DNA of 62,758 nt, the filler included, from Asterionella formosa (lineage: Eukaryota), in NCBI GenBank assembly GCA_002256025.1. It is 24 parts of 24 records of this genome, joined end to end, with 100 filler letters (N's around TTAATTAATTAA, not from the genome) between each part and the next. Parts side by side here need not be neighbours in the genome. Positions count along the whole stretch, not along the records: positions 60,249 to 62,758 come from NKIB01015179.1; 23 more parts are not named here. The stretch is one strand, 5' to 3'. Position numbers and translations under genes: made by a program. Each line of letters begins with the position of its first letter. Position 1 is the first letter of the stretch. Below, piece after piece: positions 1 through 62,758 of this stretch. Under the pieces are notes generated by a model that worked only from the letters and a program-made list of their open reading frames with translations, did no database searches and was not told the origin of the DNA.

Positions 1-887
1 TTGTCATAAAGTGATCGCTGCGGTCTCCCGTCGGCTACTGTATGCCCCTTGAGGCGCCCGTCTCTCTTCTCTTTGATGAGATTGATGGCTCGGAGCGCTC
101 CCGTCCTCTGTTCCCTGGTAAGGGAGTTCGCACTTACGGGTTCATACACATCCAGCTCCTCTAGTTGTGCAAATTCTTTCATCAGGGCGGCCTCCGCCGC
201 TTTCCCGTGTTTCTTTATTCCCGCCTTCGCGGTCATCTGGTTCATTACATACCCAAAAATATGTTTACTTGTGTTGTCGTCTGCGTATGGCATCGTTGTT
301 CGAAATCCGCGTTGTACGAACTGTCTTGGTGGAAAGTATGACTTGTTGCTATGCGGTGCGTCAATGGCCTGCTTGAACTGTTCACTTATGGCTGCCCGGC
401 GTTGTCGGAGATTATATGGTCTGTGTTCTCCTGCCAACGCTCCTTGATCTGCCAACTCGTAGTCGTTGTCAGAACCCGCTTCTTGATTGGCTTCTTCAAT
501 GATCGCTGTCTCTTCCATAGGCGCTCCTTGGTTTTCGTCGATAGGCGCCCCTTGTTCCAAGTGCGCTCCTTGGTTTTCGTTGTGTTCTTGTTGTATGTAG
601 TCGTCGTAGACAAACGCGACGTCATCAATGTCGATCGTGTTTGTGTTTGGGTCTCCTGGGTTCGGCTCGACTGTATTTGGCTCGGCTAGCGGTGCATCGT
701 CCAAAGCCGTAGGGTGTGGCCCATCATGGAGCAGATCGGCAACTTCGTGATCATCGATGGCATCAAAGTCCGCGGGGTTAAAATCGTCAATAGGTTGGCG
801 TGCGGCAGGCTCGTAGTCCCGGTCGTATTCGTCGTTGTCAATGTGGTGATCGGCGCGCCATTCTACAACTAGGCCTCTGGCCTGCAT
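1..887 (-). mobile_element. Ty1/copia (CoDi-like) pol fragment: post-integrase linker to start of reverse transcriptase
   Basis: Open minus-strand frame missing from the ORF track (runs off the contig): QMTAKAGIKKHGKAAEAALMKEFAQL...ALRAINLIKEKRDGRLKGHTVADGRPQRSLYD; similarity stops at ~888. Confidence 0.85.
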
Positions 888-1243
888 CTAAGACGCCGTT
901 TACGGCACTTTTTCAAATTTATGTCTAAAGTGACTTATTTATGCTACTTTTCTAAAATATTATGCTACTTTTTGGGGAATTTATTCGGGTCAAACCAAAA
1001 TTTATGTGTTCTAAAACAAAATTTATTCTACTTATCTAATAATTATGTGATCAAACCAATAATTATGTGAGTTCGCAACAATATTTTTTTCCAACTAGCC
1101 CTCATAACAGTATAACGGCGAAATTACGCCACTTCACGGCAATATTATGCTGGTCTCACCACATGATTAAATAAAGAGTACCTAATTTCGATTCAATTAT
1201 TATTTTTTCCTTTATCACATTTTCCCTTGATATCGACTGCTGA

Positions 1244-2032
1244 AGGCAATACACGCCCGAGGTGGTCTCTTGCCTACGAGTACACATGTATACGAGAAGG
1301 CAAGTAGCCGCCGAGAAGGGTATTGTTGAGGCAATTCCCGCTCTAGCTATCGTCGCGTCATTCGCTTATCTACTGCCCACAAATTTAGCATAAATGTCAA
1401 TTTTAGCCTACTATTGCCCATCATATAAAATATGTTTTGAATATTTCCTATATTCACCTCGAAAATTGCCAAAGGTCCGATATTGCCCATCATTAAAATA
1501 TATTTTGTATATTTCATATGTTCGCATTTTGGCAAGACAACAGACGCCAATTGCCCCTCGGTTTTCCAGCCCTGGGATTGCCGAAATCGGCAAGGGGTCT
1601 ACTTAAGGAAACCATTTTATATACTATTCAGATTCTAATAGTTTATATCTAGAATTCACCTCGTTTTTGTTCGTCTCCTGAAAAGTGGACTCCGGCAATT
1701 CACCTTTCACCATGCCAATCGTCGTCCATCATGACCGGTTTGAAGCGAAATCAGTTCCGCGATGACGCCAGTAGCGATTCTTTGCCTATAGGATGCGGTT
1801 GATTGTTGGATTGCTTGTCTTCTCGAGGCATTCATGTAGTCGCATAGTCCATTTTTCGTCGGACGAACGATGATATCGATACATCTGATGTTGGTGGCAA
1901 GTTTTTGCTCCGGTCATGTATGTAATGATGCTTAACGGATATTCTACCGGTACCGGCAGTCATCTAGTCTACGAACGTACGTGGTACTAAAAACAACCAT
2001 GCATGGATTAAGCTATGCTTTAACGCTTACTT
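1244..2032. repeat. Dispersed non-coding repeat rich in GGCAAT/ATTGCC motifs, copy A
   Basis: High identity to 24663-25462, except that 1521-1918 is in the opposite orientation. Confidence 0.9.
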
Positions 2033-2532
2033 TGAACAAGCAATAATATTATCTCTGTAGACTCGGTATTATTTTTACGAGACCTGAAATGTTGAATTAT
2101 ATCGTTCACATATTCATTGATTTTACGTACCGTATGCCCGATTTCGTCCTCACAAATATAGTTCTCACTCTATCTTGCCTGCCTTTGCTCTATTCGGGCT
2201 TGCAATAGGCAACGTTCGTCTTTCTTTGATCCCATCGTCTGCTGCTTGTTATGCTAGTTGAAGCGGATCGGTAAGTACAACAGTGAAACACTGAATGTGG
2301 ATTGTTGATCGTATTTATCGACTTTCCGATTTGATTGCTTCCGTGGTTTGTTTTGATCGCTTCCATCGTTGTTTGTCGTTCCGCACTGTCGTTTTGTTTC
2401 GATTGTACATATCTACATAAGAACCAATGCATTTATCAATGACTACTCATTGAAGATGTGGTATTGTGCCGTTGTTGATTTGTATAGTCATTGACAATGA
2501 TGTCAATATTGCCGCCAAGCAATGCTTTTCTT

Positions 2533-2632
2533 NNNNNNNNNNNNNNNNNNNNNNNNNNNNNNNNNNNNNNNNNNNNTTAATTAATTAANNNNNNNNNNNN
2601 NNNNNNNNNNNNNNNNNNNNNNNNNNNNNNNN
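2533..2632. other. Artificial contig linker (N44-TTAATTAATTAA-N44), recurring 23 times through the window
   Basis: Identical 100-nt spacer with stops in all six frames about every 2.6 kb; contig lengths mostly descend from 2532 to ~2510 bp. Confidence 0.98.
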
Positions 2633-2718
2633 ATGTATGTTTTTGGGCTGGTAGATTTATTTGATCATTGAAACCCGAAGCACTCACTGGTTTCTTACTT
2701 GACAACTTGTGTCTAAAG

Positions 2719-3716
2719 ATTTGGGAAATGTACAAAAAAGCCGAAGCTTCGTTTTGGACTGCTGAAGAGATAGATCTCGCTTCGGACATGAAGGACTGGG
2801 ATGCGTTGAGTGAGAATGAGCGTTTTTTCATCTCTCATGTCCTTGCATTCTTTGCAGCATCTGATGGTATTGTCAACGAAAACTTGGCAGCCAACTTTGC
2901 CACTGAGATCCAGTCACCCGAAGCTAGATGTTTCTACGGCTTTCAAATTGCTGTTGAAAACATTCATTCAGAAACCTACTCGCTATTGATTGATACTTAC
3001 GTTCGTGACTATACAGAAAAGCATCATCTGCTGAATGCTATTGAAACTGTCGAGTGCGTCACAAAGAAGGCCAACTGGGCGCTTCAATGGTGTGATCGCG
3101 GGAATGCATCTTTTGCTGAACGCTGTATTGCCTTTGCTACTGTAGAAGGAATCTTTTTCTCAGCCTCGTTTTGTGCCATTTTCTGGCTCAAAAAGCGTGG
3201 CCTGATGCCCGGCCTCACCTTTTCCAACGAGCTCATTTCCCGAGACGAAGGCCTACATTGTGACTTTGCCTGCTTGCTGTACCGCAAACTTGTTAACAAG
3301 GTTCCGGAGGAACGAATTGTTGAAATTATCACCAACGCTGTGGAAATTGAAAAGGAGTTTTGCACATCGGCCTTGCCAGTGTCATTGTTGGGTATGAATG
3401 CAGAAGAAATGTGCCAATATGTTGAGTTTTGTGCCAACCGCTTGTTGCGAGAACTTGGATGTTCCAATCATGTACGTTTGTGTTGCGAAGCTCGTTGATG
3501 TTGCTTCGACATATATTCATATAAACTGACCTATTTTGAACCTCCAAACAGTACATACGAAATGGGCAAGCAACAAAGAACCCCTTTGCCTTTATGGAGA
3601 TGATTTCCCTTCAAGGCAAGACAAACTTTTTTGAAAAACGTGTAGGTGAATACTCCAAGGCTGGAGTCGGTGTCGCTGCTGAAGACCAAGAATTTGACCT
3701 TGACACCGACTTTTAA
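2719..3716 (+). CDS. RNR2: Ribonucleoside-diphosphate reductase small subunit, 5'-truncated; exons 2719-3471 and 3552-3716
   Basis: [46 protein letters not shown] intron 3472-3551 restores the frame to [12 protein letters not shown]...FDLDTDF*; upstream intron 2635-2718. Confidence 0.95.
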
Positions 3717-3989
3717 ACCCTTTCACAAGTCCTATCGTGAATCTTGACTGGAAGTTGTTCGATGTCTCGTGCTCGATTTTTGTGTGTGTTCAAAAGCAAG
3801 ATGATGGAAGCTTTCTTGATTGGATCAGGAAATTGAAAAGGGATCAAAGCAAGGTATGGTAGTACCGGTATGCAACAAGTACATAGTAATATATATGGTA
3901 ATATGACAATTAAACCCCAATAACCACTCGTAAACGAGGGCGCAAATGTAGGTTGGGAGTCAAGACATGCCTGTGAAATGGTAGTTAGC

Positions 3990-5163
3990 AATAAACACTG
4001 TGTGAATAAGGTGCGAGCATTAATGAACATGCCTCCTCCTCCCACTAATCTCAAACAATTTTTATCTTTTCTGGGTTTTGCAGTTTCAGTTACTTATCAT
4101 AGGGACATGCATGTCTCCTTACTGTTCTCATGTTCTTTGCCCACTGAAAGATTTCATCGGAACTGGTCCATTTGTTTGGTTTCCTATTCATCGCTATAGC
4201 AGATTCTAAATCTCGCCTCCCAAAGCTTGAGTCTTTGGGTGGGGTATGATCTTGGGCCAACATCTTCAAAATTAACATCCGATTCTTTTTCTCAATTGAA
4301 TTAGATGATAAGCCTCTGCTTACCTGTTCTGTTTTCTCAATTATCCAGTTTTGGCAGACAATATTCAATATCCTTTGGATTGTAATTTGATACATGATTG
4401 AAAATTGTTGGATATACAATTGATTCCCAATCAACAAACAAATCCTTTAGCATTTCCCTCTAATCAATTTTCATGATATTGACTTAATGTGTTTTGTGAA
4501 GAATCCAGGGGATACTTTGCGTATTGCTATACCTACTAATTAATTGGTATCATCATATGTTAACCCATGTGGTTATGACAAGATTGGATGCTACAATTGC
4601 TACTCATTTTTATCAACCAACATTTAAAACACAAGTGGAGCACACTGTACTAAGCATATGTGAAGCATGTCAATGTACAAAATTACCTAGCTAGTGCTGG
4701 TTATGGTGAACTTCCACCTCAGAATGCTTATGATTCCATGTTCAGAAGTTGCAGTGGATTTAGTTAGCCCATGGAAAATAACAGTGGCTGCACAAGCAAT
4801 TGAATTTTGTGCTTTAACTTGTATAGACATAGCTAGTATCAACATTAACACATCAGATTATAATGTTTTGAAATTCGAAAATGATTGGCTAGCCCAGTAG
4901 CCCCATCCACAACGTTGTATCCGTGATAATGGGGGTGACTTTAGTACTGGCAAATCTTTTCTACACATGCTGACTCTGAATAGAATTAATGATGTCACTA
5001 CTACAGTCAATAATCGTCCGCAAGATAATTCTATTTGCGCCTGTTTACATCAATCCTTCAGTGGCAGTTTCGTGAAATGTTCCTCCACTCAATGAATTTC
5101 AAGCTCAGAATATTGTGGATAGTAAATGTTTCGCCGCTGCATCCTATGCAGCTCGAGCTACTA
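3990..5163 (+). mobile_element. Degenerate Ty3/gypsy pol remnant (RT end / RNase H / integrase)
   Basis: Fragmented motifs PPTNLKQFLSFLG, YGELPP..PCSEVAVDLVSPW, CIRDNGGD in Gypsy order, with many stops and frameshifts. Confidence 0.7.
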
Positions 5164-5263
5164 NNNNNNNNNNNNNNNNNNNNNNNNNNNNNNNNNNNNN
5201 NNNNNNNTTAATTAATTAANNNNNNNNNNNNNNNNNNNNNNNNNNNNNNNNNNNNNNNNNNNN

Positions 5264-6706
5264 TTAAGGCTGCTATTATTCAGCCTGAGTTCCCTTTTCT
5301 CCGAGGCTTGGGTCTCGATCATTGGTCCAATAAAACAACGCAACCGAAACAGAAACTCCATTGCAATCAACCCCGTGATTATGGCAGCAACAACAACTCC
5401 TACTACTAGTGTGCCAACGCTTCCCTTGCCCGAGGTCATTTGCTCTGACGTACCTGGAACTTGGGCATATGATACCATGTCTCGACGAGTCGACAAGGAA
5501 ATTCTTCAAAGAACATTTGATGAAAACAAGCAAGAATTCGAGTCGGAAGCATTCTCCAACGTACTGGAACGGTACAACGACTTGCGGAAGGAACTACAGT
5601 CCACCGCCAAGTTGACTTACCTAGATGATGTACCCGAGGGAGCTTCAGAAGAGCGTCTACGGGAATATCAAGAATGGAAGGAGCTCTTGCGACCATATGT
5701 GGAACAGGGTGACACTTGGTTGACGGCTCCATGGTTGGTGACTGAATTCTATGTCTATCGTCGGGTGATGCAAGCGTTGGGTTACTGGGACCCTTCGTCG
5801 GCGGGTTACATGTACGATCCTTTCGCAAAGGCGAAGAGAGCTGGGCTGGATAGTTCTGCTGGGTCGGCAGAAGCTATGCTTGCCAAGATCCCAACTCTAC
5901 CAAAGACCAAAGAAGGCATCACATTGGCCGCTGCATTTGCCCTATGGGGCAACAAGATGGACCTTTCCTTGTGGCCTGCTGATGCTGCCAATGCAAACAT
6001 AGACGTGTTTTCAAATATATTAGCAAGTGCCAGTGAGAATCTCTTGCATGATGATTCTGGTATTCTCAGCGATCATTGCGACAAGTTGAGAGCAGCTGGA
6101 GGTGGAAATGTGGATATCATTGTTGACAACGCGGGTTTTGAACTAGTCACTGATTTGGCTCTTGCACAACATTTGGTGGAGAGCGGAATTGCAAAGTGTG
6201 TCACATTTCAGCTCAAGTCACATCCGACGTTTGTCTCCGATGCACTTGAAAAGGACTTGCGAGAAACTGTTGCTCATTACTGTAATTTGGATGTATCTCA
6301 GTTTCCTCAAGCTCACAAGGCTGGATTGGTGTGGCAGTCCTTCTTGGAAGATGGCCAGTGGAAGTGCAACGAAGACAACTTTTGGGTGCAACCATTTTCC
6401 ATGTGGCAAATGACAGAACCTCTCCGATCAGATATGAGGAACCGGTGCGATCTTGCCTTTGTCAAGGGCGACGCCAATTATCGTCGCTTGTTGGGTGATG
6501 GGAAGTGGGACTATACTGCTCCTTTTCAAAAAGTGGTTGGTGATTACTTCCCTTGTCCCGTATGTGCGCTTCGAACGCTCAAGGCGGAAGTTGGTTGTGG
6601 AATGGATGCCGATCAAGTTGAACGAGCCAAATCGCTAGATGACAACTGGCTTGTCAACGGCAGATTCGGTGTGGTTCATTTTGGAACAGGAGCATCTAAG
6701 AACTAA
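5264..6706 (+). CDS. ARMT1/DUF89 damage-control phosphatase; frame open from the contig start with a signal/transit-like extension
   Basis: PWLVTEFYVYRR, YDPFAKAK, LWGNKMDLS, DNAGFELVTD, KSHPTFVSD, KGDANYRRL, LRTLKAE. Confidence 0.9.
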   Translation, partial: LRLLLFSLSSLFSEAWVSIIGPIKQRNRNRNSIAINPVIMAATTTPTTSVPTLPLPEVICSDVPGTWAYDTMSRRVDKEILQRTFDENKQEFESEAFSNVLERYNDLRKELQSTAKLTYLDDVPEGASEERLREYQEWKELLRPYVEQGDTWLTAPWLVTEFYVYRRVMQALGYWDPSSAGYMYDPFAKAKRAGLDSSAGSAEAMLAKIPTLPKTKEGITLAAAFALWGNKMDLSLWPADAANANIDVFSNILASASENLLHDDSGILSDHCDKLRAAGGGNVDIIVDNAGFELVTDLALAQHLVESGIAKCVTFQLKSHPTFVSDALEKDLRETVAHYCNLDVSQFPQAHKAGLVWQSFLEDGQWKCNEDNFWVQPFSMWQMTEPLRSDMRNRCDLAFVKGDANYRRLLGDGKWDYTAPFQKVVGDYFPCPVCALRTLKAEVGCGMDADQVERAKSLDDNWLVNGRFGVVHFGTGASKN

Positions 6707-6763
6707 AAAGCATAGTAATAATTGAGATGAGATAAACGATATAGTCAGTCAAATAAAAACTTT

Positions 6764-7720
6764 CTAATCATTAACATTCGAAGCATCAGTGTTTTCCTCT
6801 AATACTGGCTTTTTCCGAAGGTAGCATTCGCCCCAGGCACAAACAGCCTTGCTTCTCAAAATATCAGCGAAGGCTTCAAGGTCGATGGGATCGTTCTCAG
6901 TTCCTTCCCATACAAGTAGCTCTCGGAATGTTCCTCTATGATATTGTTGGGTGGGATATTTCCGTTCCGATGTGACGACTTGTGAGTCCGGTGTTAGCTG
7001 ACTAGAAACCTGGAGCCAGCTAATTATTTCCTGCACGTGTTTAATGGATACGGATCCATCCTCTAACTGCAATGCTTCATAGAGAACACGGATTCTATCA
7101 TTTGGCGAGGAGTGTAAGGCCAAGGAAAGAATGGTCAGCCAAAACGAAAGTGGCATTTCCTCGTCTTGCGACTTTTCCAACTGGTCCATGGCAGCGACAA
7201 CGGCTCTGTCAATCAAGTGTCCCAGTTCTATTGTAAATGCTGGTCCTTTCAGGGAGGCCATGGTATTTCTAACTGACTTGACAAATTCTAAATAGGTTGC
7301 TGTTCCAGTAGCAAACTCTTGCTTCAGTTCTTGGATGATGCGGCGAAAGACGGCAGAGTCCAGCTCCGAGTTGGCGATTCGCAAATCGTCAATCTCCATT
7401 GGATCCAGCGAGGCCTTTTCTTCTATATCATTTCGAATCTTTTCTTTATTAGAAGTTCCATACGAGGTTCTTACCAAGCTAAGAATGATGGCACCAATGG
7501 AACACAGGAAAATGGTGCCTAGATTGTCGAGAAAGTAATCCGAAGCCTCCTTCTTGTTTAGTTTCGCTGCTGCTGTCGCGAGGGACCTGCCGTTTCCGCT
7601 TTTACATCGCTGCACTAAGCAGTAGCCCTTACTTCTAGTTGCTAGAAGCGATGGCCGTAAGCATGGTCTAGAGAACAGGTGCCTGCTGATGTGGTGAGAA
7701 CTGACCGTTCGAAGCGCCAT
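6764..7720 (-). CDS. Hypothetical protein with mitochondrial-type presequence, one TM helix and a degenerate EF-hand-like C-terminal region
   Basis: Long ORF convergent with ARMT1; Arg/Ser-rich N-terminus from ATG 7720; hydrophobic LGTIFLCSIGAIILSLV. Confidence 0.7.
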   Translation of the reverse strand: MALRTVSSHHISRHLFSRPCLRPSLLATRSKGYCLVQRCKSGNGRSLATAAAKLNKKEASDYFLDNLGTIFLCSIGAIILSLVRTSYGTSNKEKIRNDIEEKASLDPMEIDDLRIANSELDSAVFRRIIQELKQEFATGTATYLEFVKSVRNTMASLKGPAFTIELGHLIDRAVVAAMDQLEKSQDEEMPLSFWLTILSLALHSSPNDRIRVLYEALQLEDGSVSIKHVQEIISWLQVSSQLTPDSQVVTSERKYPTQQYHRGTFRELLVWEGTENDPIDLEAFADILRSKAVCAWGECYLRKKPVLEENTDASNVND

Positions 7721-8393
7721 GGTTGTTGTCAAGGAGGTAGAAGTGAACAGGATCTGCTGAAAAATTAAGCAAGACCACACACACCAGTTAGTANNNNNNN
7801 NNNNNNNNNNNNNNNNNNNNNNNNNNNNNNNNNNNNNTTAATTAATTAANNNNNNNNNNNNNNNNNNNNNNNNNNNNNNNNNNNNNNNNNNNNTCATGTT
7901 GGGAGCTCCCACAGGCAGGGTATCACCATTTTCCCTTGTTTGATTCCAAAGCTAAGATGTGATATGGTTTGATGCAAGACGTGCCACGACTTAAACTTTC
8001 TTCGTTGCAGATAATTTCAAGATTCGTACATCATCCCATATTCATTCGTGTACATGGTACCTGGTACTAGGTAACTGACACCATGGATGAAAAATAACAC
8101 GGTACCTGGTACCTGGTACCAACTACCGTAGACTGCACTCACGAATTCCTCCCGAGGAACTTAATTTGTGTTATCGGGCGACGCAGGACGTGTCACGACT
8201 TAACTTTCACCGTCGGACGACACGTTCATTTACTGTGCCAGTACTTCCAGTAGAGTACCCTGGTTACCTACTCTGTCAAAGGATCCATTACACTTTTCCA
8301 TATCGTCACTCTTCATCATTGCCTTTGGTCTAATTGATTGCTACATCAGAACAGGGCGAACGAAGAGCCGTTGATTCATCCAATTCAAGGAAC

Positions 8394-10001
8394 ATGGACG
8401 CCAGTGCCGCAGAACTTCCGTTTGGAGTTGCACAAGCAGAACTTTATGATGAGCCCACGATTGTCTACTCTTCTGATTCTCCCACTGTTACGACTTATCC
8501 TATCGCGCTTGCTCTATCCTTCAAAGAAGCCACAGTAGTACCGCTGTCCTCGCCTGATACAGAGGCTCCTCCAGAAGCCGCTGTGCTCTCCGTAGAGGAG
8601 CCAACAGCATATTCGACTCAACCTAACAACCCCTCCGTTCCTTTCGACACGAACGAAATTTACACTCCAGATCCGTGGACTCCATTAGATATTGAAAGCA
8701 AGAATTGTTCCATTTTCCGAAACAAACATTGCCTCATGGGTGCCTTTCTCAGTATTGTCGTTTTGGCGGTGGTCTTGTCCCTTACCATAAATCCGCACAA
8801 GAGTACTGATGTGCCATATTATATTTATCGTATGCCCAGCGATTATGTTAACAGTTGGAATGTTCTTGAGCTTGGAATAATGCCATCTCAAAATGGACCC
8901 ACTTTTTGGGCCACAGATCCGAAGGATTGTGTAATGCGTTGCGTAGGGAGAACTTATAATTGCGAAGCAATTGTATGGCTCAACGTGTCAAAACTTCGAA
9001 CCTTTATGGACGTTGGAAACTGTATTTGTCATGATACAAGTACCTGCGTTTACAATTCTAGTTACGATGTTCCTGGAATAGCCATGTCGATCAAGCCGCT
9101 CCCAAGAAAATGTAATAGTTATGAAATCCAAGGGGACTACAATTTCAGCGGTACAAAGCCGGACAGGTTCGAAGGAAGGGTTCAGAAAGTTGACGAACAT
9201 TATCTTTACATTTCTTATCCAACCTCATATGGAAATGATTATTCAGATGCACGTATCTTCGGCAACCTTTCGAGCTCTGATTTTGAGTTCCTTCAAGCTT
9301 ATGACCTTTCCCAATTCAAAGTCTCAACAACTGTCGTGGCTATTCCCAGTCCCTACAATTATGTTGACTACAATTATGGTTTGACACTCAATGTTTCGCT
9401 TTCTGTGGAGGTTCCAGGAGTAGAAGTTGTGATTGAGTTAACCTCATTGGAAGAAGACCCCTACTATTCACTGCCTGTTGGCGCCCCTATTGATTTCACT
9501 ACCTCTGCTCCCATTGGATATACAATCTCGCCTATTGCTCAACCTGTCATCCAACCTGCTGACCAACCTGTTTATGCTCCTAATTCGGCTCCTATTGGTT
9601 TCACCCCCTCTGCTCCCATTGGATATCCAATCTCGCCTATTGCTCAACCTATTATCCCACCTGCTGACCAACCTGTTTATGCACAACCGGTTTATCTTTC
9701 TCCGAGCTATTACGATTTGGAATATAACTTCACGTGGAACATTCTAGAGGATGGCATACTACCAACAACAGAATACTACACGGGAAATTTTTCTGCAGAT
9801 CCTGTGGAATGTCTTGCTTCTTGCAGTAGCAGCAACTTTGGTTACGTTGAGGCCATTGTGTTTTTCACATACATCAATGGTGATGGATTCAACTGCATTT
9901 GTCATTCTAGCGCAATTTGTGTGAAGAATTATACAGGTGTTCCTGGTCTTGTAAGATCAAATAAGCCAATGCCAGGGCCATGTGACAGTACCTTTCCATA
10001 A
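8394..10001 (+). CDS. Single-pass membrane protein with two Cys-rich modules and a Pro-rich repeat linker
   Basis: TM CLMGAFLSIVVLAVVLSLTI; two similar modules (WNVLELGIMP...DPKDCVMRC...NCICH and WNILEDGILP...DPVECLASC...NCICH); duplicated APIG..SPIAQP repeat at ~9480-9690. Confidence 0.75.
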   Translation: MDASAAELPFGVAQAELYDEPTIVYSSDSPTVTTYPIALALSFKEATVVPLSSPDTEAPPEAAVLSVEEPTAYSTQPNNPSVPFDTNEIYTPDPWTPLDIESKNCSIFRNKHCLMGAFLSIVVLAVVLSLTINPHKSTDVPYYIYRMPSDYVNSWNVLELGIMPSQNGPTFWATDPKDCVMRCVGRTYNCEAIVWLNVSKLRTFMDVGNCICHDTSTCVYNSSYDVPGIAMSIKPLPRKCNSYEIQGDYNFSGTKPDRFEGRVQKVDEHYLYISYPTSYGNDYSDARIFGNLSSSDFEFLQAYDLSQFKVSTTVVAIPSPYNYVDYNYGLTLNVSLSVEVPGVEVVIELTSLEEDPYYSLPVGAPIDFTTSAPIGYTISPIAQPVIQPADQPVYAPNSAPIGFTPSAPIGYPISPIAQPIIPPADQPVYAQPVYLSPSYYDLEYNFTWNILEDGILPTTEYYTGNFSADPVECLASCSSSNFGYVEAIVFFTYINGDGFNCICHSSAICVKNYTGVPGLVRSNKPMPGPCDSTFP

Positions 10002-10039
10002 AATATATGTTAATCATTTTATAGCGCATTCGTACTAGT

Positions 10040-10422
10040 CTATTTCTAGGTTTGTCGTTGTTGCGCTCAATGGACAATCAAAGGTGGTGGGCAGTGGAAA
10101 GTTGGGTGGGTAGTCACTTCCTCGTGAAGAACTAGGAGTTTTGAAAAATTGTGGTAGCATTGTTCTGGAATTGGTTTCCTCTGACTGCCTTTTTCATGTC
10201 AGCCGGAGAATTGGATGGCAAGTGTTGATTGGATGAAAGATATTCTTTGCATCCCCACTCCTTTGTCCTGCTTCTCTTTCATCTGTTTGTTGTTCAGTAT
10301 GTACTGTGTGGGAAAATTGGGATGGAAACGGTCTGTCTGGATCGAATTTGGATGCATGGACATTGTCAAAAGCCATAACTCAATTTAATGATGCTGTTGG
10401 GTGGATTTTGGTCATTTTGGTC
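10040..10422 (-). repeat. Diverged copy of the 3' part of the repeat family on contig 28902-31420
   Basis: aaggtggtgggcagtggaaag...gtagtcacttcc...tcatgtcagcc aligns with 29085-29230 and, inverted, with ~30600-30745. Confidence 0.7.
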
Positions 10423-10579
10423 NNNNNNNNNNNNNNNNNNNNNNNNNNNNNNNNNNNNNNNNNNNNTTAATTAATTAANNNNNNNNNNNNNNNNNNNNNN
10501 NNNNNNNNNNNNNNNNNNNNNNGTACGAGCCCTTCGTCACTCTTTCCTTATTTCCTTACCAACCTGCCAGAAAAGGCAT

Positions 10580-12268
10580 TCAACTTGTACTACCTCGATG
10601 TTGCAGCATTCTTGCTTCGACAATAGCCGTGGATACTTCTTGTATCCGGCTATCCAAGTATGCCTCTCTAAGTTGGCGTTCCTTTAAGACGTTCTCGCAC
10701 TCTTTTATCGATTTCTGCAGTTCACATTGTTCCTGGTCTATCGCGGCAATCGCATCATCATGAACTTTTATTTTTTGCTCTTCAGCCCGCAGTAAATTTC
10801 GTTGTTGAACAAACAAACGTTTCCAGTAAGCCACCTCTCTGTCATGTTGTACCTGTTCTTGTCTCTGCATTAATTGCTCTCTATTAAGTATGGGTGGTGG
10901 TTTCTTTCGTTGCTGCAAGCTTTTTTTGAGTTTTAATGTCATTCGTTTCAATTCAAGTTTCTTCTTTAGAAGTTCTACGTTCATGTCAACGACTTGTTTC
11001 TTTTTGGTTTGTAGGTGCTGATCTGAGGATTGATCTGATGTCTGATCTAAGGTATGATCAGAGTGTTGATCTGAGTGCTGATCGAAGGTATGACCGCTTT
11101 CACTGTCGTCACTCGTTTCGTCGCCGTCGTGTTGAACATTGACAGGTTCTATCCATCGCACCTGTTCTGGTGGTCCCGATTGGCTAATGTTTTCAATCAC
11201 CAAGTGATGATGATGATGGTTGCGAAGGGCCATTACTAATTTTTCCTTGGCTTTCATCAGTTTTGCTCTAACTTGTTCCATTTGTATAGCCTTATTGTCA
11301 GACAATTGTGTAGGTGGTGACTGATAATTCCTTCTCTTGGTTCTCAATGCTTCCAATCGCTTTTTGGTATGATCAGCTTTGGTCCTCTCAGTAGTAACAA
11401 TCAATTCATTATCCGCCTTTTTGGCAGGCAACGTTGGTAAATCCGAGTACAAAACGTCTTGTTCCATGTCGGAAGAAGGAGATTCTTGTGGCGGCATCAC
11501 CGGCTGTTTCAATGGATCAGTACTATCCACCATTAGCGCCTGCTGACTCCCAGAAGCACTAGTAGGAGTAACATCAACCTGTGCAGCAGTTGCAGCAGCA
11601 TCTCCATCAGACTCTTCCATATCAGACGTTGATGATGTTCTCTGATTTCGAGCATATTTGGGAGGTGGTGGTGGAGGAGGAGGGGGCGGTGGCAGCGGAA
11701 AAGGAGGACTGAGCCACTGCATCGTTGGGTACGTAGTAAGAACTGTGGCGTCATGTTGATACTGTTGACTCAGTGATGGTAAAGGAGCAGTAGCAGTAGC
11801 AGTCGTATTATTAACATTGCTATTAGTAACCGCCTCCATTGACATGGGAAACTGATTCTGCCAATCTTGCATTGGTGACGAGTTCCATAATGGCGTTGAT
11901 GGTGGTGGTGGTGGTGGTGGTGGTTGTTGATACGCGTGCCTCCATACTTCTTGTTGCTTTTGAGCTACTCCCACCACTACTCGTGGGTTCCACCCCAACT
12001 GTTGTATGACATGGTGCTGCTGTCGTTGTTGTTGTTGAAAACGTCGTTGTCGTGTTGCATCGTCGACATCTTTTGAAATGTTCCATCTACCAGCGGTGGC
12101 GGTAGTGCTATTCCATCGCCCGCTGTTGTTGTTGCTGTTGCTGACTGTCATGACTTGCTCTTTTGCCGAAGCTCTTCTATGCGAGCAAGTGAGGATGGTA
12201 TGTGTGGGATCTGATACACGAAGTAACTTCGACACAATTACTGTCTCGTCCGATTCGTCTTTCTCCAT
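10580..12268 (-). CDS. Hypothetical Pro/Gln-rich protein with C-terminal coiled coil
   Basis: 562-aa ORF with poly-P/Q tracts and a heptad-like K/E/Q/L C-terminus; family not recognised. Confidence 0.7.
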   Translation of the reverse strand: MEKDESDETVIVSKLLRVSDPTHTILTCSHRRASAKEQVMTVSNSNNNSGRWNSTTATAGRWNISKDVDDATRQRRFQQQQRQQHHVIQQLGWNPRVVVGVAQKQQEVWRHAYQQPPPPPPPPSTPLWNSSPMQDWQNQFPMSMEAVTNSNVNNTTATATAPLPSLSQQYQHDATVLTTYPTMQWLSPPFPLPPPPPPPPPPPKYARNQRTSSTSDMEESDGDAAATAAQVDVTPTSASGSQQALMVDSTDPLKQPVMPPQESPSSDMEQDVLYSDLPTLPAKKADNELIVTTERTKADHTKKRLEALRTKRRNYQSPPTQLSDNKAIQMEQVRAKLMKAKEKLVMALRNHHHHHLVIENISQSGPPEQVRWIEPVNVQHDGDETSDDSESGHTFDQHSDQHSDHTLDQTSDQSSDQHLQTKKKQVVDMNVELLKKKLELKRMTLKLKKSLQQRKKPPPILNREQLMQRQEQVQHDREVAYWKRLFVQQRNLLRAEEQKIKVHDDAIAAIDQEQCELQKSIKECENVLKERQLREAYLDSRIQEVSTAIVEARMLQHRGSTS

Positions 12269-52422: not shown

Positions 52423-54932
52423 CAAAGAAAAAATCGGCGCACAACGTTACGTTGTGGTGATGCTCCAGGATTGGGGCAGGAATCGGTTCGGCCACAAACG
52501 TTGGCGCTCTTGGGGCGGCGCGCGACCGCGTAGTTTTACCTTTTATGACGGCGATGTCTGGACCGTAAATAATGAGGGCGCGCTTGGCGTCGTCTGGCGT
52601 CACTGGGCAATTTCTAATCAAGTTGTTCCGTAGAATGGATTGGAATTCCGCCTCGGCAGGCCGCCCGATCTTTCTATACAAGTCTCTGGCTACATTGGCT
52701 GATTGAATTTCAAATCGTGAGAATAGTTTCTTCTGTTCTGCTACTGTGGATAGCATGGTATAACCTGTAACACTGTCGTTAGTATCGTTGTTGCAACTAA
52801 ACACATATAGTCCTGAGGGGTGCTCGAGAAATTTCATCACAGTTCCATCGAGTCTATGGACAAACATCGCGGGCTCGTCCGCAGAGTCCATGGTGACGCG
52901 GCATACCTTGCGCACCTCAGCAAGGGAGAGGATGTTGGCAATTGATTCACGGTTGTACCAAACCTTACCCAAGTTGGGAAAATCTCCTACCATGTTGGAG
53001 TCCTGGTAGCCCCCATTTGTGAGCGCCCTGAGTACGTAAGAGCTACGCCGGATGTTGCTGAGCATGTCGGCGTTCTTGAACACGGAGATTGTCGACTGCG
53101 AGTCGAGAAGGATCTACTTAGGATCAATCCCAGGGTCGCCGGTCTGTGCAAGCATGTATGCATACTGCGTCAAAGTAGTGCCTGAGGTTGTCGATCCCTG
53201 CCTGTCCCCGGCAGTAGTGTCCTAGGCTTTGGCAGTTGTAACAGATGATGCCATCATGTAACACTCCATTATTGCCTGCGATTTCGCCACGTTGCGCAAA
53301 CGTCATTGCACTGGCTTCAGGGCTTCCAGTCGGCTGGGAGCGTGGTGTATCTGTCCTGACGCTGGTGTTTGTTGGAGTTCTGTAGTTGACGAGAAGGCTT
53401 TGGGCTGACAACAAATCGGTGGGGTACTGGTCAATTCCCATTGCATACTGGTTTGACAGGTCAGTGATGAGGGTGCCATACCTGGTGGGGTCAGCACTTC
53501 GAATCAAAGCGATTGCAAGCGTGCGTTCGCGTGCGATCTCCTTTCGCTCTTCAGTGCTACGCCCATTCCCGTCCTGATCCTGGAAGGGTACCAGTTTGTA
53601 ATTTGCTGCCACAGTGCCGCCATGGTACTCGATGGTCTCAGCCCATCCTCGCAAACACTCGACGTAGTCTTCTGCGGACTGTCCTTGTAACTGACGACAA
53701 TTGAGGAAACTGGTCTGGGCGTCCAAAAGTGCAATGAAACCATTCCTGCTCTGATCGAACTGTAAAGTAATCGACTTGATCTGTTTTAGAAGCCAAAAAC
53801 AATCGTTGTTGGCAGTCTTGTCCTTGTAGTCATCGTGCGTTTTGACCTTTGCCTTCATGTCATCACTACACTGGCCCCAAATCACCGCATACACTGTTGC
53901 TAGGTTGCTCTTCAGGGTATGATTGCGCTTGACATACGTTTTTACTTCTTCTGCGAAAATCATTTTCATGGTCAGTCCTGCATCGTCATCTAGGTCATCT
54001 GGCATGTCTACCATGGGAACCGCCATGGTGTCGGCAAACAAAGGGGCAAGGTCTTCAGAGTACTTCAGTGTTTTCCTCACATATCCGTCTAGAGCTTCTA
54101 ACGTTTTGGCGTACTGGCGTCTGTCACTTTGTTCTTCATAGCATTCAAATACGTTCCCGTTCATGCCCTCTGTGCTGCCCTTAAAAATGCCACGGTTGTT
54201 GCTTGTCGCTTGTGTCCTTGCCCGGCCGCCACGGCTCCCGCGCGGACGGTTGTCCCTTCGCCCTCTCCCACCGGTGCTGCCGTGTCCACTCGCTAAGCTG
54301 CCGCTTGTCGTTGCGTCTGGGGTGGCGCTCATGGGGTTCGTCGGTTCCTTGATTGGTGGCTGCGGCCTTCAGCTGCACTACTCGAATCTATAAAGTGTTC
54401 AAAACCTCGGTTGAAATGTCGAAACTCCAGCCTTCCATGTGAATGGCTGTTCCTTTTGTTTTGTTTTATTTTTATTTTATCTCGAAACAATGTTGTAACA
54501 ACTACCGTATTCGACCGTATCGTAGGCCTTGAACCTAGTACTGTGTTAATCGAATACAGTTGATGAAATTGATAGCAACGAGGAAGTTGTCAAACTTAAA
54601 CTTTCGCTTTACTAACTGGATTGTTTCGAGATAATGGTCTCGAAACACTCTTATTACTCACATTGCATTTTAACATTTTTTCCTGACCTCTGATTGCTTT
54701 TCCTTGCGTTGTGCCTTTTACCACGTCAGCCCAGGTAAATCTTTGTAGCGGCTGTACGGTTTTAACTGTAGTACTGTTCTCTCTCGTGTCCACTATACCC
54801 TTCATGCCTGTCCTGTGGCAGTCAGCTCGCATTTTTCCAACACGCTCCTCGGCTGTTGCCAGGGAACTGGCAGTCAGGGTATCGACGTGCGCAGCTCCTA
54901 GAAGCACATTTCGGAATGTTCTGAACAGGTTT
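52423..54932 (-). mobile_element. CoDi-like Copia element: pol end - LTR (54491-54842) - gag (53124-54332) - protease / pre-integrase; defective
   Basis: Near-identical reverse complement of 60249-62758; frameshift in the Zn knuckle; TAG in place of Trp before ILLDSQST. Confidence 0.9.
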
Positions 54933-60248: not shown

Positions 60249-62758
60249 AAACCTGTTCAGAACATTCCGAAATGTGCTTCTAGGAGCTGCGCACGTCGAT
60301 ACCCTGACTGCCAGTTCCCTGGCAACAGCCGAGGAGCGTGTTGGAAAAATGCGAGCTGACTGCCACAGGACAGGCATGAAGGGTATAGTGGACACGAGAG
60401 AGAACAGTACTACAGTTAAAACCGTACAGCCGCTACAAAGATTTACCTGGGCTGACGTGGTAAAAGGCACAACGCAAGGAAAAGCAATCAGAGGTCAGGA
60501 AAAAATGTTAAAATGCAATGTGAGTAATAAGAGTGTTTCGAGACCATTATCTCGAAACAATCCAGTTAGTAAAGCGAAAGTTTAAGTTTGACAACTTCCT
60601 CGTTGCTATCAATTTCATCAACTGTATTCGATTAACACAGTACTAGGTTCAAGGCCTACGATACGGTCGAATACGGTAGTTGTTACAACATTGTTTCGAG
60701 ATAAAATAAAAATAAAACAAAACAAAAGGAACAGCCATTCACATGGAAGGCTGGAGTTTCGACATTTCAACCGAGGTTTTGAACACTTTATAGATTCGAG
60801 TAGTGCAGCTGAAGGCCGCAGCCACCAATCAAGGAACCGACGAACCCCATGAGCGCCACCCCAGACGCAACGACAAGCGGCAGCTTAGCGAGTGGACACG
60901 GCAGCACCGGTGGGAGAGGGCGAAGGGACAACCGTCCGCGCGGGAGCCGTGGCGGCCGGGCAAGGACACAAGCGACAAGCAACAACCGTGGCATTTTTAA
61001 GGGCAGCACAGAGGGCATGAACGGGAACGTATTTGAATGCTATGAAGAACAAAGTGACAGACGCCAGTACGCCAAAACGTTAGAAGCTCTAGACGGATAT
61101 GTGAGGAAAACACTGAAGTACTCTGAAGACCTTGCCCCTTTGTTTGCCGACACCATGGCGGTTCCCATGGTAGACATGCCAGATGACCTAGATGACGATG
61201 CAGGACTGACCATGAAAATGATTTTCGCAGAAGAAGTAAAAACGTATGTCAAGCGCAATCATACCCTGAAGAGCAACCTAGCAACAGTGTATGCGGTGAT
61301 TTGGGGCCAGTGTAGTGATGACATGAAGGCAAAGGTCAAAACGCACGATGACTACAAGGACAAGACTGCCAACAACGATTGTTTTTGGCTTCTAAAACAG
61401 ATCAAGTCGATTACTTTACAGTTCGATCAGAGCAGGAATGGTTTCATTGCACTTTTGGACGCCCAGACCAGTTTCCTCAATTGTCGTCAGTTACAAGGAC
61501 AGTCCGCAGAAGACTACGTCGAGTGTTTGCGAGGATGGGCTGAGACCATCGAGTACCATGGCGGCACCGTGGCAGCAAATTACAAACTGGTACCCTTCCA
61601 GGATCAGGACGGGAATGGGCGTAGCACTGAAGAGCGAAAGGAGATCGCACGCGAACGCACCCTTGCAATCGCTTTGATTCGAAGTGCTGACCCCACCAGG
61701 TATGGCACCCTCATCACTGACCTGTCAAACCAGTATGCAATGGGAATTGACCAGTACCCCACCGATTTGTTGTCAGCCCAAAGCCTTCTCGTCAACTACA
61801 GAACTCCAACGAACACCAGCGTCAGGACAGATACACCACGCTCCCAGCCGACTGGAAGCCCTGAAGCCAGTGCAATGACGTTTGCGCAACGTGGCGAAAT
61901 CGCAGGCAATAATGGAGTGTTACATGATGGCATCATCTGTTACAACTGCCAAAGCCTAGGAAACTCCTGCCGGGGGCAGGCAGGGATCGACAACCTCAGG
62001 CACTACATTGACGCAGTATGCATACATGCTTGCACAGACCGGCGACCCTGGGATTGATCCTAAGTGGATCCTTCTCGACTTGCAGTCGACAATCTCCGTG
62101 TTCAAGAACGCCGACATGCTCAGCAACATCCGGCGTAGCCCTTACGTACTCAGGGCGCTCACAAATGGGGGCTACCAGGACTCCAACATGGTAGGAGATT
62201 TTCCCAACTTGGGTAAGGTTTGGTACAACCGTGAATCAATTGCCAACATCCTCTCCCTTGCTGAGGTGCGCAAGGTATGCCGCGTCACCATGGACTCTGC
62301 GGACGAGCCCGCGATGCTTGTCCATAGACTCGATGGAACTGTGATGAAATTTCTTGAGCACCCCTCAGGACTATATGTGTTTAGTTGTAACAACGATACT
62401 AACGACAGTGTTACAGGTTATACCATGCTATCCACAGTAGCAGAACAGAAGAAACTATTCTCACGACGTGAAATTCAATCAGCCAATATAGCCAGAGACT
62501 TGTATAGAAAGATCGGGCGGCCTGCCGAGGCGGAATTCCAATCCATCCTACGGAACAACTTGATTAGAAATTGCCCAGTGACGCCAGACGACGCCAAGCG
62601 CGCCCTCATTATTTACGGTCCAGACATCGCTGTCATAAAAGGTAAAACTACGCGGTCGCGCGCCGCCCCAAGAGCGCCAACGTTTGTGGCCGAACCGATT
62701 CCTGCCCCAATCCTGGAGCATCACCACAACGTAACGTTGTGCGCCGATTTTTTCTTTG
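60249..62758 (+). mobile_element. CoDi-like Copia element: pol end - LTR - gag (60849-~61970) - protease / pre-integrase
   Basis: LFRTFRNVLLG (RNase H end); IWGQCS; CYNCQSLG; WILLDLQSTISVF; ANILSLAEV; IRNCPVT.DDAKRA..IYGPD. Confidence 0.9.
60339..60690 (+). repeat. Predicted LTR (352 bp)
   Basis: Starts TGTTG after purine-rich GAGGAGCG and ends CAACA; lies between the pol end and gag. A second LTR is not available to confirm the borders. Confidence 0.65.

Follow-up and report, generated by a model that had tools for sequence, protein, structure and literature searches.

How does a Ty1/copia-type retrotransposon start reverse transcription when the sequence behind its long terminal repeat (LTR) does not look like a binding site for a tRNA primer? 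The question is raised by an element in a 62,758-nt stretch of the Asterionella formosa assembly GCA_002256025.1 (the window, 1-62758), where it lies on the last contig, NKIB01015179.1, at 60249-62758 (2510 nt). A preliminary description of this DNA proposed that the primer-binding site (PBS) after the LTR pairs not with a tRNA but with a site inside the LTR that follows an initiator-like motif. This core reading stands. The 15 nt at the LTR end, ATTGTTTCGAGATAA, are the exact reverse complement (15/15 nt) of TTATCTCGAAACAAT within the LTR (right and left arm, Table 1), inspection of the sequence after CAACA at 60690 finds no TGG-type PBS, and a pair at the homologous position, its left arm mostly preceded by TCA or CA, recurs in 46 of 79 related loci. 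This diatom Copia lineage probably self-primes reverse transcription by a mechanism like that of Tf1, as these sequence comparisons suggest.

Recurrence and covariation of the 15-nt pair

The perfect complementarity was re-located on the plus strand in both contigs for which it had been described. When 60546-60712 was folded as RNA, the 15-bp helix was present in the minimum free energy (MFE) structure and in the centroid, with an MFE of -45.2 kcal/mol (z = -5.83) that no shuffle equalled (0/200). A search of Rfam gave no family match, only a sub-threshold hit to ssnA (E 0.6) at 60804-60831 that is irrelevant here. In the 3′ LTR copy, the left arm doubles as coding sequence for L-S-R-N-N of the pol tail.

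The window was put together artificially from 24 contigs, ordered by length (2506-2532 bp) and separated by linkers of the form N44-TTAATTAATTAA-N44, and adjacent segments are not genomic neighbours. The second copy of the pair claimed in the preliminary description is indeed present, but it lies on a contig (52423-54932) that is the reverse complement of 60249-62758. Both contigs have 2510 nt, and their 18 mismatches all fall from contig position 1320 on. Because the twins are identical over contig positions 1-1319, and so across the LTR and the PBS, the second copy gives no independent support. The other 22 contigs of the window contain no further copy of the element.

Relatives were used for comparison. 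A set of 79 related loci was fetched from metagenome contigs through an alignment of 27 polyproteins, and these loci share 35-64% amino acid identity. The 79 loci and the window contig (421,970 nt) were scanned for perfect inverted repeats of at least 12 nt separated by a gap of 40-450 nt. The scan returned 66 repeats of at least 12 nt compared to 5-8 in five block-shuffles, and 55 of at least 14 nt compared to 0-1. Chance origin of the pair is excluded. A perfect pair of 13-17 nt, mostly 15 nt, sits at the same two homologous sites in the 46 loci. The family-type pair is on one stretch in 43 of them, and the other three fit with a 14-nt pair (L022), a pair that spans the circular overlap (L039), or a left arm in the 3′ LTR that matches the PBS after a truncated 5′ LTR (L053). 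One further locus has an imperfect pair (L050, 14/15) and one has none (L021). Three contigs begin inside R with a PBS-like site visible (L006, L007, L031), and the junction is absent from the remaining 28.

The element itself was found in 20 of the 24 runs listed; these 20 runs, of which 6 are RNA libraries, come from 17 studies and exist as contigs. It is common in metagenomes from freshwater, river, lake and estuary habitats. Because it is common there and present in RNA libraries, the element is likely active and ecologically widespread. These findings also bear on the idea that the pair is a chance match or an artefact of collapsed-repeat assembly. The window contig is collapsed and circularly permuted, and its second copy is the same sequence, as an artefact would have it. 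That explanation is effectively refuted by the excess of long repeats over shuffles, by the same architecture in two full-length relatives with target-site duplications (L008 and L059), and by the presence of the stretch in so many runs and studies.

The geometry of the pair was compared in 43 distinct rows (42 loci and the window). The arms are 15 nt long in 33 rows, 14 nt in 4, 16 nt in 4, 13 nt in 1 and 17 nt in 1, and the gap between them is 95-152 nt, mostly 110-125 nt. In 35/43 rows the first base of the right arm is the A of AAC-A, and in 28/43 the left arm is followed by CC. There are 38 distinct left arms, with conserved ends (TTCT...AAT) and a free middle. The arms of the 46 loci have no wobble and no mismatch despite high sequence turnover. 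Even the close relatives L065/L066 and L041/L045, which differ at one arm position, have a PBS that is changed to match. L008 and L059 have the same arrangement: their left arms are 162 and 174 nt inside the LTR, so that the arm is preceded by a normal U3.

Covariation was measured on alignment A2 (the 43 rows), for which the window row supplied the 15-pair helix. Helix pairing was found in 93.5% of 644 cells compared to 63.2±1.2% in shuffles, none of which (0/500) reached the observed value, although the A2 rows were picked for a perfect repeat and this percentage is partly circular. Because of this selection, the independent support comes from the shuffle count of the repeat scan and the constant position of the pair. 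Cells with changes on both sides numbered 173 compared to 43.7±5.0 in shuffles, compensatory changes were present in 13/15 pairs, and controls in which the helix was slid paired in 42-55% of cells. RNAalifold, run without a hint, predicted no helix other than this one, with compensation in 12 of its 13 pairs. These data bear out the covariation between PBS and R for which the preliminary description had looked to related families.

LTR borders and the predicted transcription start

The contig represents a Ty1/copia LTR retrotransposon of the diatom type. Because identical LTRs collapse during assembly, it is circularly permuted and reads, in order, pol 3′ end, LTR, leader and gag (ATG at 60849). 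Exact 127-nt terminal overlaps in the related contigs L003, L022, L034 and L039 are the same kind of artefact. The window copy has no flanks of its own. Its LTR borders were located from the full-length relatives L008 and L059, both with 5-bp target-site duplications (TSDs), and from the points at which contigs of four other runs diverge from the window contig. The proposed LTR end at 60690 is confirmed by homology to both relatives and by a run contig that diverges there (X2 record 29 matches 60404-60690 and continues with 30 nt that are unlike). With the LTR end fixed at 60690, the right arm is at the exact position of a PBS. The same homology and divergence reject an LTR end at 60764.

In L008 and L059, the 3′ LTR begins with TGTTGAG and follows CCGAGGATCG and CCGAGGAGCG, respectively (CCGAGGA(T/G)CG). 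Window 60331-60344 reads GAGGAGCG/TGTTGG, with the slash at the border, and because it matches this junction in the relatives, the LTR start is placed at 60339. The junction GAGGAGCG/TGTT is shared by L002, L015, L036, L047, L066 and the window. When the junction of polypurine tract and LTR start was searched for by a strict regular expression, 6/43 rows matched, many of the rows being 5′ LTRs or using other codons, and U3 length is documented for those 6 rows and for L008 and L059 only. Run contigs place mutually unlike loose ends just before 60339 in X1 (7, agreement 0.57), X2 (1) and X15 (3, and 1 more at 60338). Depth bins over 60333-60668 are several-fold above the internal bins, although depth derived from contigs is a weak measure. 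The earlier placement of the LTR start at 60534/60535 was incorrect: the LTR starts of the relatives and the divergent flanks in three runs all point to 60339. A start at the TGTT at 60535 would leave a U3 of 12 nt, and the diverse flanks sit at 60339. Contigs from X2 (DNA) and X15 (RNA) do join different upstream sequence at 60534 or 60527. Because these share one consensus, they are read as a variant U3 and pol tail that share R-U5, not as insertion flanks.

The LTR start lies within coding sequence. The polypurine-tract-like CGAGGAGCG and the first LTR bases encode the conserved EERVG motif of the pol tail, whose codons coincide with the nucleotides of the junction GAGGAGCG/TGTTGG, and E1560, R1561 and V1562 are nearly invariant in the alignment of 27 polyproteins. 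The pol frame crosses the polypurine tract and the entire U3 and ends just inside R (window 60330-60585; L008 5925-6096). The last ~82 pol codons are encoded by U3 and the first 38 nt of R. The window pol stop is 38 nt past the predicted start, and in most relatives it falls within ~50 nt of the left arm.

The sequence immediately 5′ of the left arm is TCA in 30/43 rows and CA in 38/43. The proposed Inr-like motif of diatoms is TCAH+1W (PMC4686930), and the INR of oomycetes, which are also stramenopiles, is YCAYTYY (PMC3599244). Because the TCA/TT context fits both motifs, transcription is predicted to start at 60546 or 60547.

A partial repeat of the PBS is found at the end of U3 in some rows. 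The copy of the PBS core in the window, TGTTTCGAGA, could form a local hairpin with the left arm. A stretch complementary to the left arm over at least 7 nt and no more than 30 nt 5′ of it occurs in 8/43 rows compared to 63/2000 shuffles: window 60535-60560, L015 3744-3773, L002, L041, L047, L058, L071 and L072. The copy co-varies with the arm between the window and L015. One possible role of the hairpin is to hide the primer sequence in its 3′ copy.

A separate observation concerns L050, where the terminal repeats (118-228 and 6405-6515) share only R-U5, 111 bp that are 100% identical and start at the left arm. The U3 of the 3′ copy has no homologue in the 5′ copy, and no TSD was seen. L050 could be an insertion that was truncated on its 5′ side or completed aberrantly, and its 5′ edge would then mark the start of the RNA.

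Probable self-priming and its alternatives

We propose, with Tf1 of S. pombe as the model, that the PBS pairs with the 5′-terminal ~15 nt of the element's own RNA, and not with a tRNA, transcription starting at the initiator-like CA/TT in the LTR. The 5′ end of the mRNA would fold back onto the PBS and close a loop of ~128 nt (R-U5). RNase H would cut the RNA past the duplex, at about nt 15/16 (after 60561), and the freed 3′-OH would prime minus-strand strong-stop DNA; we infer both the cleavage and the priming from the present analysis. Plus-strand strong-stop synthesis would copy the primer and rewrite the PBS from the left arm in each cycle, and this rewriting would preserve perfect complementarity between the arms as their sequence diverges from lineage to lineage. 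Retroviral PBS sequences are recopied from the primer during plus-strand strong-stop synthesis, which is the basis for the rewriting step. The matched changes at single arm and PBS positions in close relatives are what copying of the PBS from the primer would produce.

Several observations weigh against this reading, in addition to the selection of the A2 rows. The initiator-like motif of the window is CCA compared to the TCA that is usual in the family. Contig X16 record 17, from an RNA library, runs unbroken from pol through the LTR into gag, and the RNA libraries offer no indication of a start at 60546. This continuity could be due to DNA carry-over, to read-through, or to assembly through R; contigs of the runs, the metatranscriptomes X15 and X16 included, do not display RNA 5′ ends. 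A hand-drawn 7-pair hairpin in U5 is paired in 59.2% of cells compared to 53.5% in shuffles and 51.3% when slid by -1, a marginal difference. RNAalifold found no consensus for the U5 stem-loop in the 34 of 43 rows that were used after L044, L054, L070, L071, L072, L074, L075, L076 and L078 had been dropped as poorly alignable.

Priming by a tRNA is the first alternative. Drosophila copia is primed by a tRNA-iMet half, and the PBS of the diatom element could likewise bind a host tRNA or tRNA half. There are no tRNA genes in the window, and a tRNA scan of 24 of the 79 loci returned one, an initiator-type tRNA-Met in L018 (4422-4493, minus strand). The window PBS contains GTTTCGA, which is complementary to TCGAAAC of the T-loop of this tRNA, but this best match covers 7 nt and was judged no better than chance, with an estimated chance expectation of ~0.1 for that comparison. 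The PBS lacks a TGG start, and its middle 8-9 positions vary among relatives with all pair types, a variation that a single tRNA would not match. Variation of the PBS among relatives argues against a single conserved tRNA primer, and we consider tRNA priming very unlikely. The tRNA-Met gene of L018 lies ~800 nt downstream of the pol stop of the related element, a single case.

The second alternative keeps the helix but gives it another role. A conserved long-range RNA helix could serve packaging, dimerisation, translation control or 5′-3′ cyclisation via the 3′ R, with some other primer for reverse transcription; CYC5 and CYC3 of Ty1 are a model for cyclisation. Covariation proves pairing, not priming. 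The left arm is also present in the 3′ LTR copy, making a pairing of the PBS with the 3′ R physically possible, and the L053 contig carries the left arm only as a 3′ copy. A structural helix would be expected to contain G:U pairs and mismatches and to vary in length, whereas the pairs of the 46 loci are perfectly Watson-Crick and exactly 15 nt long in 33/43 rows. The right arm fills the first bases after the LTR, where there is no other PBS candidate. Priming is favoured over a structural helix because of this exact position, the lack of another candidate, and the strict, fixed-length Watson-Crick pairing, and we regard a purely structural role as unlikely.

The third alternative is that the primer acts in trans, as a short LTR-derived RNA (an abortive or cleaved 5′ fragment, or a small RNA) supplied by another transcript or copy. 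Sequence data cannot separate cis from trans, and the element is multi-copy and present in RNA libraries. The distance between the arms is constant (95-152 nt), and the loop region shows a modest excess of structure over shuffles (mean z -1.04, 33/43 rows <0, although the rows are not independent), which together suggest an intramolecular fold. Close copies with different arms would also prime each other poorly. Priming in trans appears quite unlikely.

In the self-priming described for Tf1, the 5′ end of the transcript folds back and anneals to the PBS, cleavage of the RNA then frees an end, and this end primes the minus strand (PMC4600332). The mechanism was demonstrated for Tf1; for the Tf1/sushi group, for Tj1 and for the Tcn1 clade of plants it has been inferred (PMC4600332, PMC6317226). 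As in Tf1, Tf2 and Tj1 of the Tf1-sushi group, the PBS after the diatom LTR would pair with the 5′ end of the element's own mRNA, here a predicted one, and close an R-U5 loop (PMC4600332, PMC5445492). Unlike the Tf1/sushi elements, which are Ty3/gypsy, the diatom element has a reverse transcriptase (RT) of the Copia type (RVT_2), so it would be Tf1-like in its working and is not a member of that family. The predicted diatom duplex is 15 bp long and includes the last LTR base, whereas the Tf1 primer is 11 nt long.

Self-priming has been predicted for Copia elements of plants as well, namely the Ty1/copia TAR lineage that includes Houba and Osr-1 (PMC6317226, where the proposal for these two is attributed to Capy 2005). 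The operational definition of a predicted self-primer in that work, at least 10 bp that complement the 5′ LTR and begin 0-5 bp past its end, also takes in the diatom pair, and both are Copia elements with a post-LTR sequence complementary to a stretch of the 5′ LTR. Unlike the TAR elements, the diatom element has a diatom host and is supported by covariation across lineages in 46 loci; the two are likened by their predicted mode of priming only. The fungal Copia element GalEa has no PBS but a Conserved Hairpin Site whose first base is the last A of the 5′ LTR, and its authors report no complement in the LTR or U5 and conclude that the Tf1 model does not fit (PMC5445492). GalEa and the diatom element are thus alike as Copia elements without a tRNA-type PBS whose self-complementary feature begins at the last A of the 5′ LTR. 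They differ in that the GalEa feature is a short local palindrome with a hairpin, whereas the partner in the diatom element is ~128 nt upstream in the LTR, at the predicted mRNA start. The CoDi elements, such as Blackbeard of Phaeodactylum, share the diatom Copia-type polyprotein, and the main text of their description (PMC2806351) contains no analysis of a PBS or of priming, "PBS" there being a buffer only. Full-text searches, with subscription journals outside their scope, found no literature linking self-priming to diatom retrotransposons. The novelty is less than the preliminary description suggested, given the prediction for the plant TAR lineage (PMC6317226). The data support a place for the diatom Copia clade in the known class of self-primed LTR retrotransposons, as judged by its predicted primer and PBS.

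To our knowledge, Tf1 is the only element for which self-primed reverse transcription has been demonstrated, and elsewhere it is mostly inferred from complementarity within single elements. Dozens of naturally varied, perfectly compensated primer/PBS pairs are a type of evidence that usually comes from mutagenesis. If true, the present reading extends self-priming to Copia elements of stramenopiles, and annotation pipelines that require a tRNA-type PBS would overlook diatom elements of this kind or misjudge them. A simple lineage barcode would be provided by the 15-nt pair, which also predicts the exact transcription start and cleavage site, which are testable in culturable diatoms. A broader scenario is possible, although as a joint claim we hold it only tentatively: a large and environmentally widespread diatom Copia clade may have dropped tRNA priming for a 15-nt self-primer derived from the start of its mRNA, independently of the Tf1/sushi Gypsy elements and the plant TAR Copia elements; the element may be unusually compact, the EERVG motif being really a signal for the polypurine tract and LTR end; and in some lineages the hairpin with the U3-terminal PBS copy may gate which primer copy serves.

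Coding regions and further features

The features of the element and of its full-length relatives are located in Table 1. The window pol tail (60250-60582) is identical to the C terminus of polyprotein P0001 at 104/111 positions (94%), and P0001 is 98% identical to the window pol fragment over 266 aa. P0001 is a single open reading frame (ORF) of 1642 aa with RVT_2 (PF07727, Copia-type RT; E 8.5e-19) and zf-CCHC domains; no integrase match was returned for it by Pfam at E<=0.01. The three window ORFs gave no meaningful match in a Pfam search, and the window contig is without the RT region. The window element is assigned to Copia because the near-identical P0001 carries RVT_2. Among named relatives, the closest are annotated in Fragilaria crotonensis, a diatom.

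Table 1. Positions of the element's features in the window and of the 5′ LTRs of two full-length relatives (locus coordinates)
Feature	Coordinates	Strand	Description	Basis
Left arm, predicted self-primer	60547-60561	+	TTATCTCGAAACAAT; predicted first ~15 nt of element mRNA	
Right arm, predicted PBS	60690-60704	+	ATTGTTTCGAGATAA; first base is last LTR base	
LTR	60339-60690	+	352 bp; TGTTG...CAACA terminal inverted repeat; single copy in contig	LTR ends of relatives with TSDs; run-contig divergence points
Putative U3	60339-60545	+	~207 nt; doubles as pol-tail coding sequence	LTR part upstream of predicted start
Initiator-like ACCA/TTA	60543-60549	+	Predicted start 60546 or 60547	Context in relatives; diatom Inr-like motif
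Putative R-U5	60546-60690	+	~145 nt; loop closed by predicted primer:PBS duplex	
U3-terminal copy of PBS core	60535-60544	+	TGTTTCGAGA; local hairpin with 60551-60560 across predicted start	
Polypurine-tract-like sequence	60330-60338	+	CGAGGAGCG; directly 5′ of LTR	
pol (polyprotein) ORF, 3′ end	60249-60585	+	Stop codon 60583-60585	60250-60582 aligns to P0001 residues 1532-1642
Leader	60705-60848	+	A-rich, untranslated	
gag ORF	60849-62057	+	402 aa; out of frame with pol near 61968-61976	Relative to P0001
Twin LTR and arms	54477-54842	-	LTR 54491-54842; left arm 54620-54634; PBS 54477-54491	Identity to 60249-62758 over contig positions 1-1319
L008 full-length element, 5′ LTR	677-969		293 bp; TGTTGAG...ATCAACA; TSD CTGTA	
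L059 full-length element, 5′ LTR	5596-5899		TSD CACAG	

Small indels separate the window from P0001, which has an intact CCHC knuckle, and from X2 and X16 contigs at ~61966-61976. The gag stop is at 62055-62057 and the pol frame is open from 61960. This break between gag and pol is common to both window contigs, and it likely reflects a defective copy, not programmed frameshifting.

A GAYTNAANGKYC-like motif occurs ~35-55 nt before the LTR end in many relatives (window 60660-60680; alignment A3 columns 41-63). It is able to form a small hairpin, with 59% pairing compared to 53.5% in shuffles, a marginal excess.

Locus L069 contains a 5549-nt stretch twice, at 98-5646 and 5765-11313, with 100% identity and a period of 5667 nt. 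The repeat is either a tandem array of elements that share one LTR or the product of an assembly that circled a collapsed element twice.

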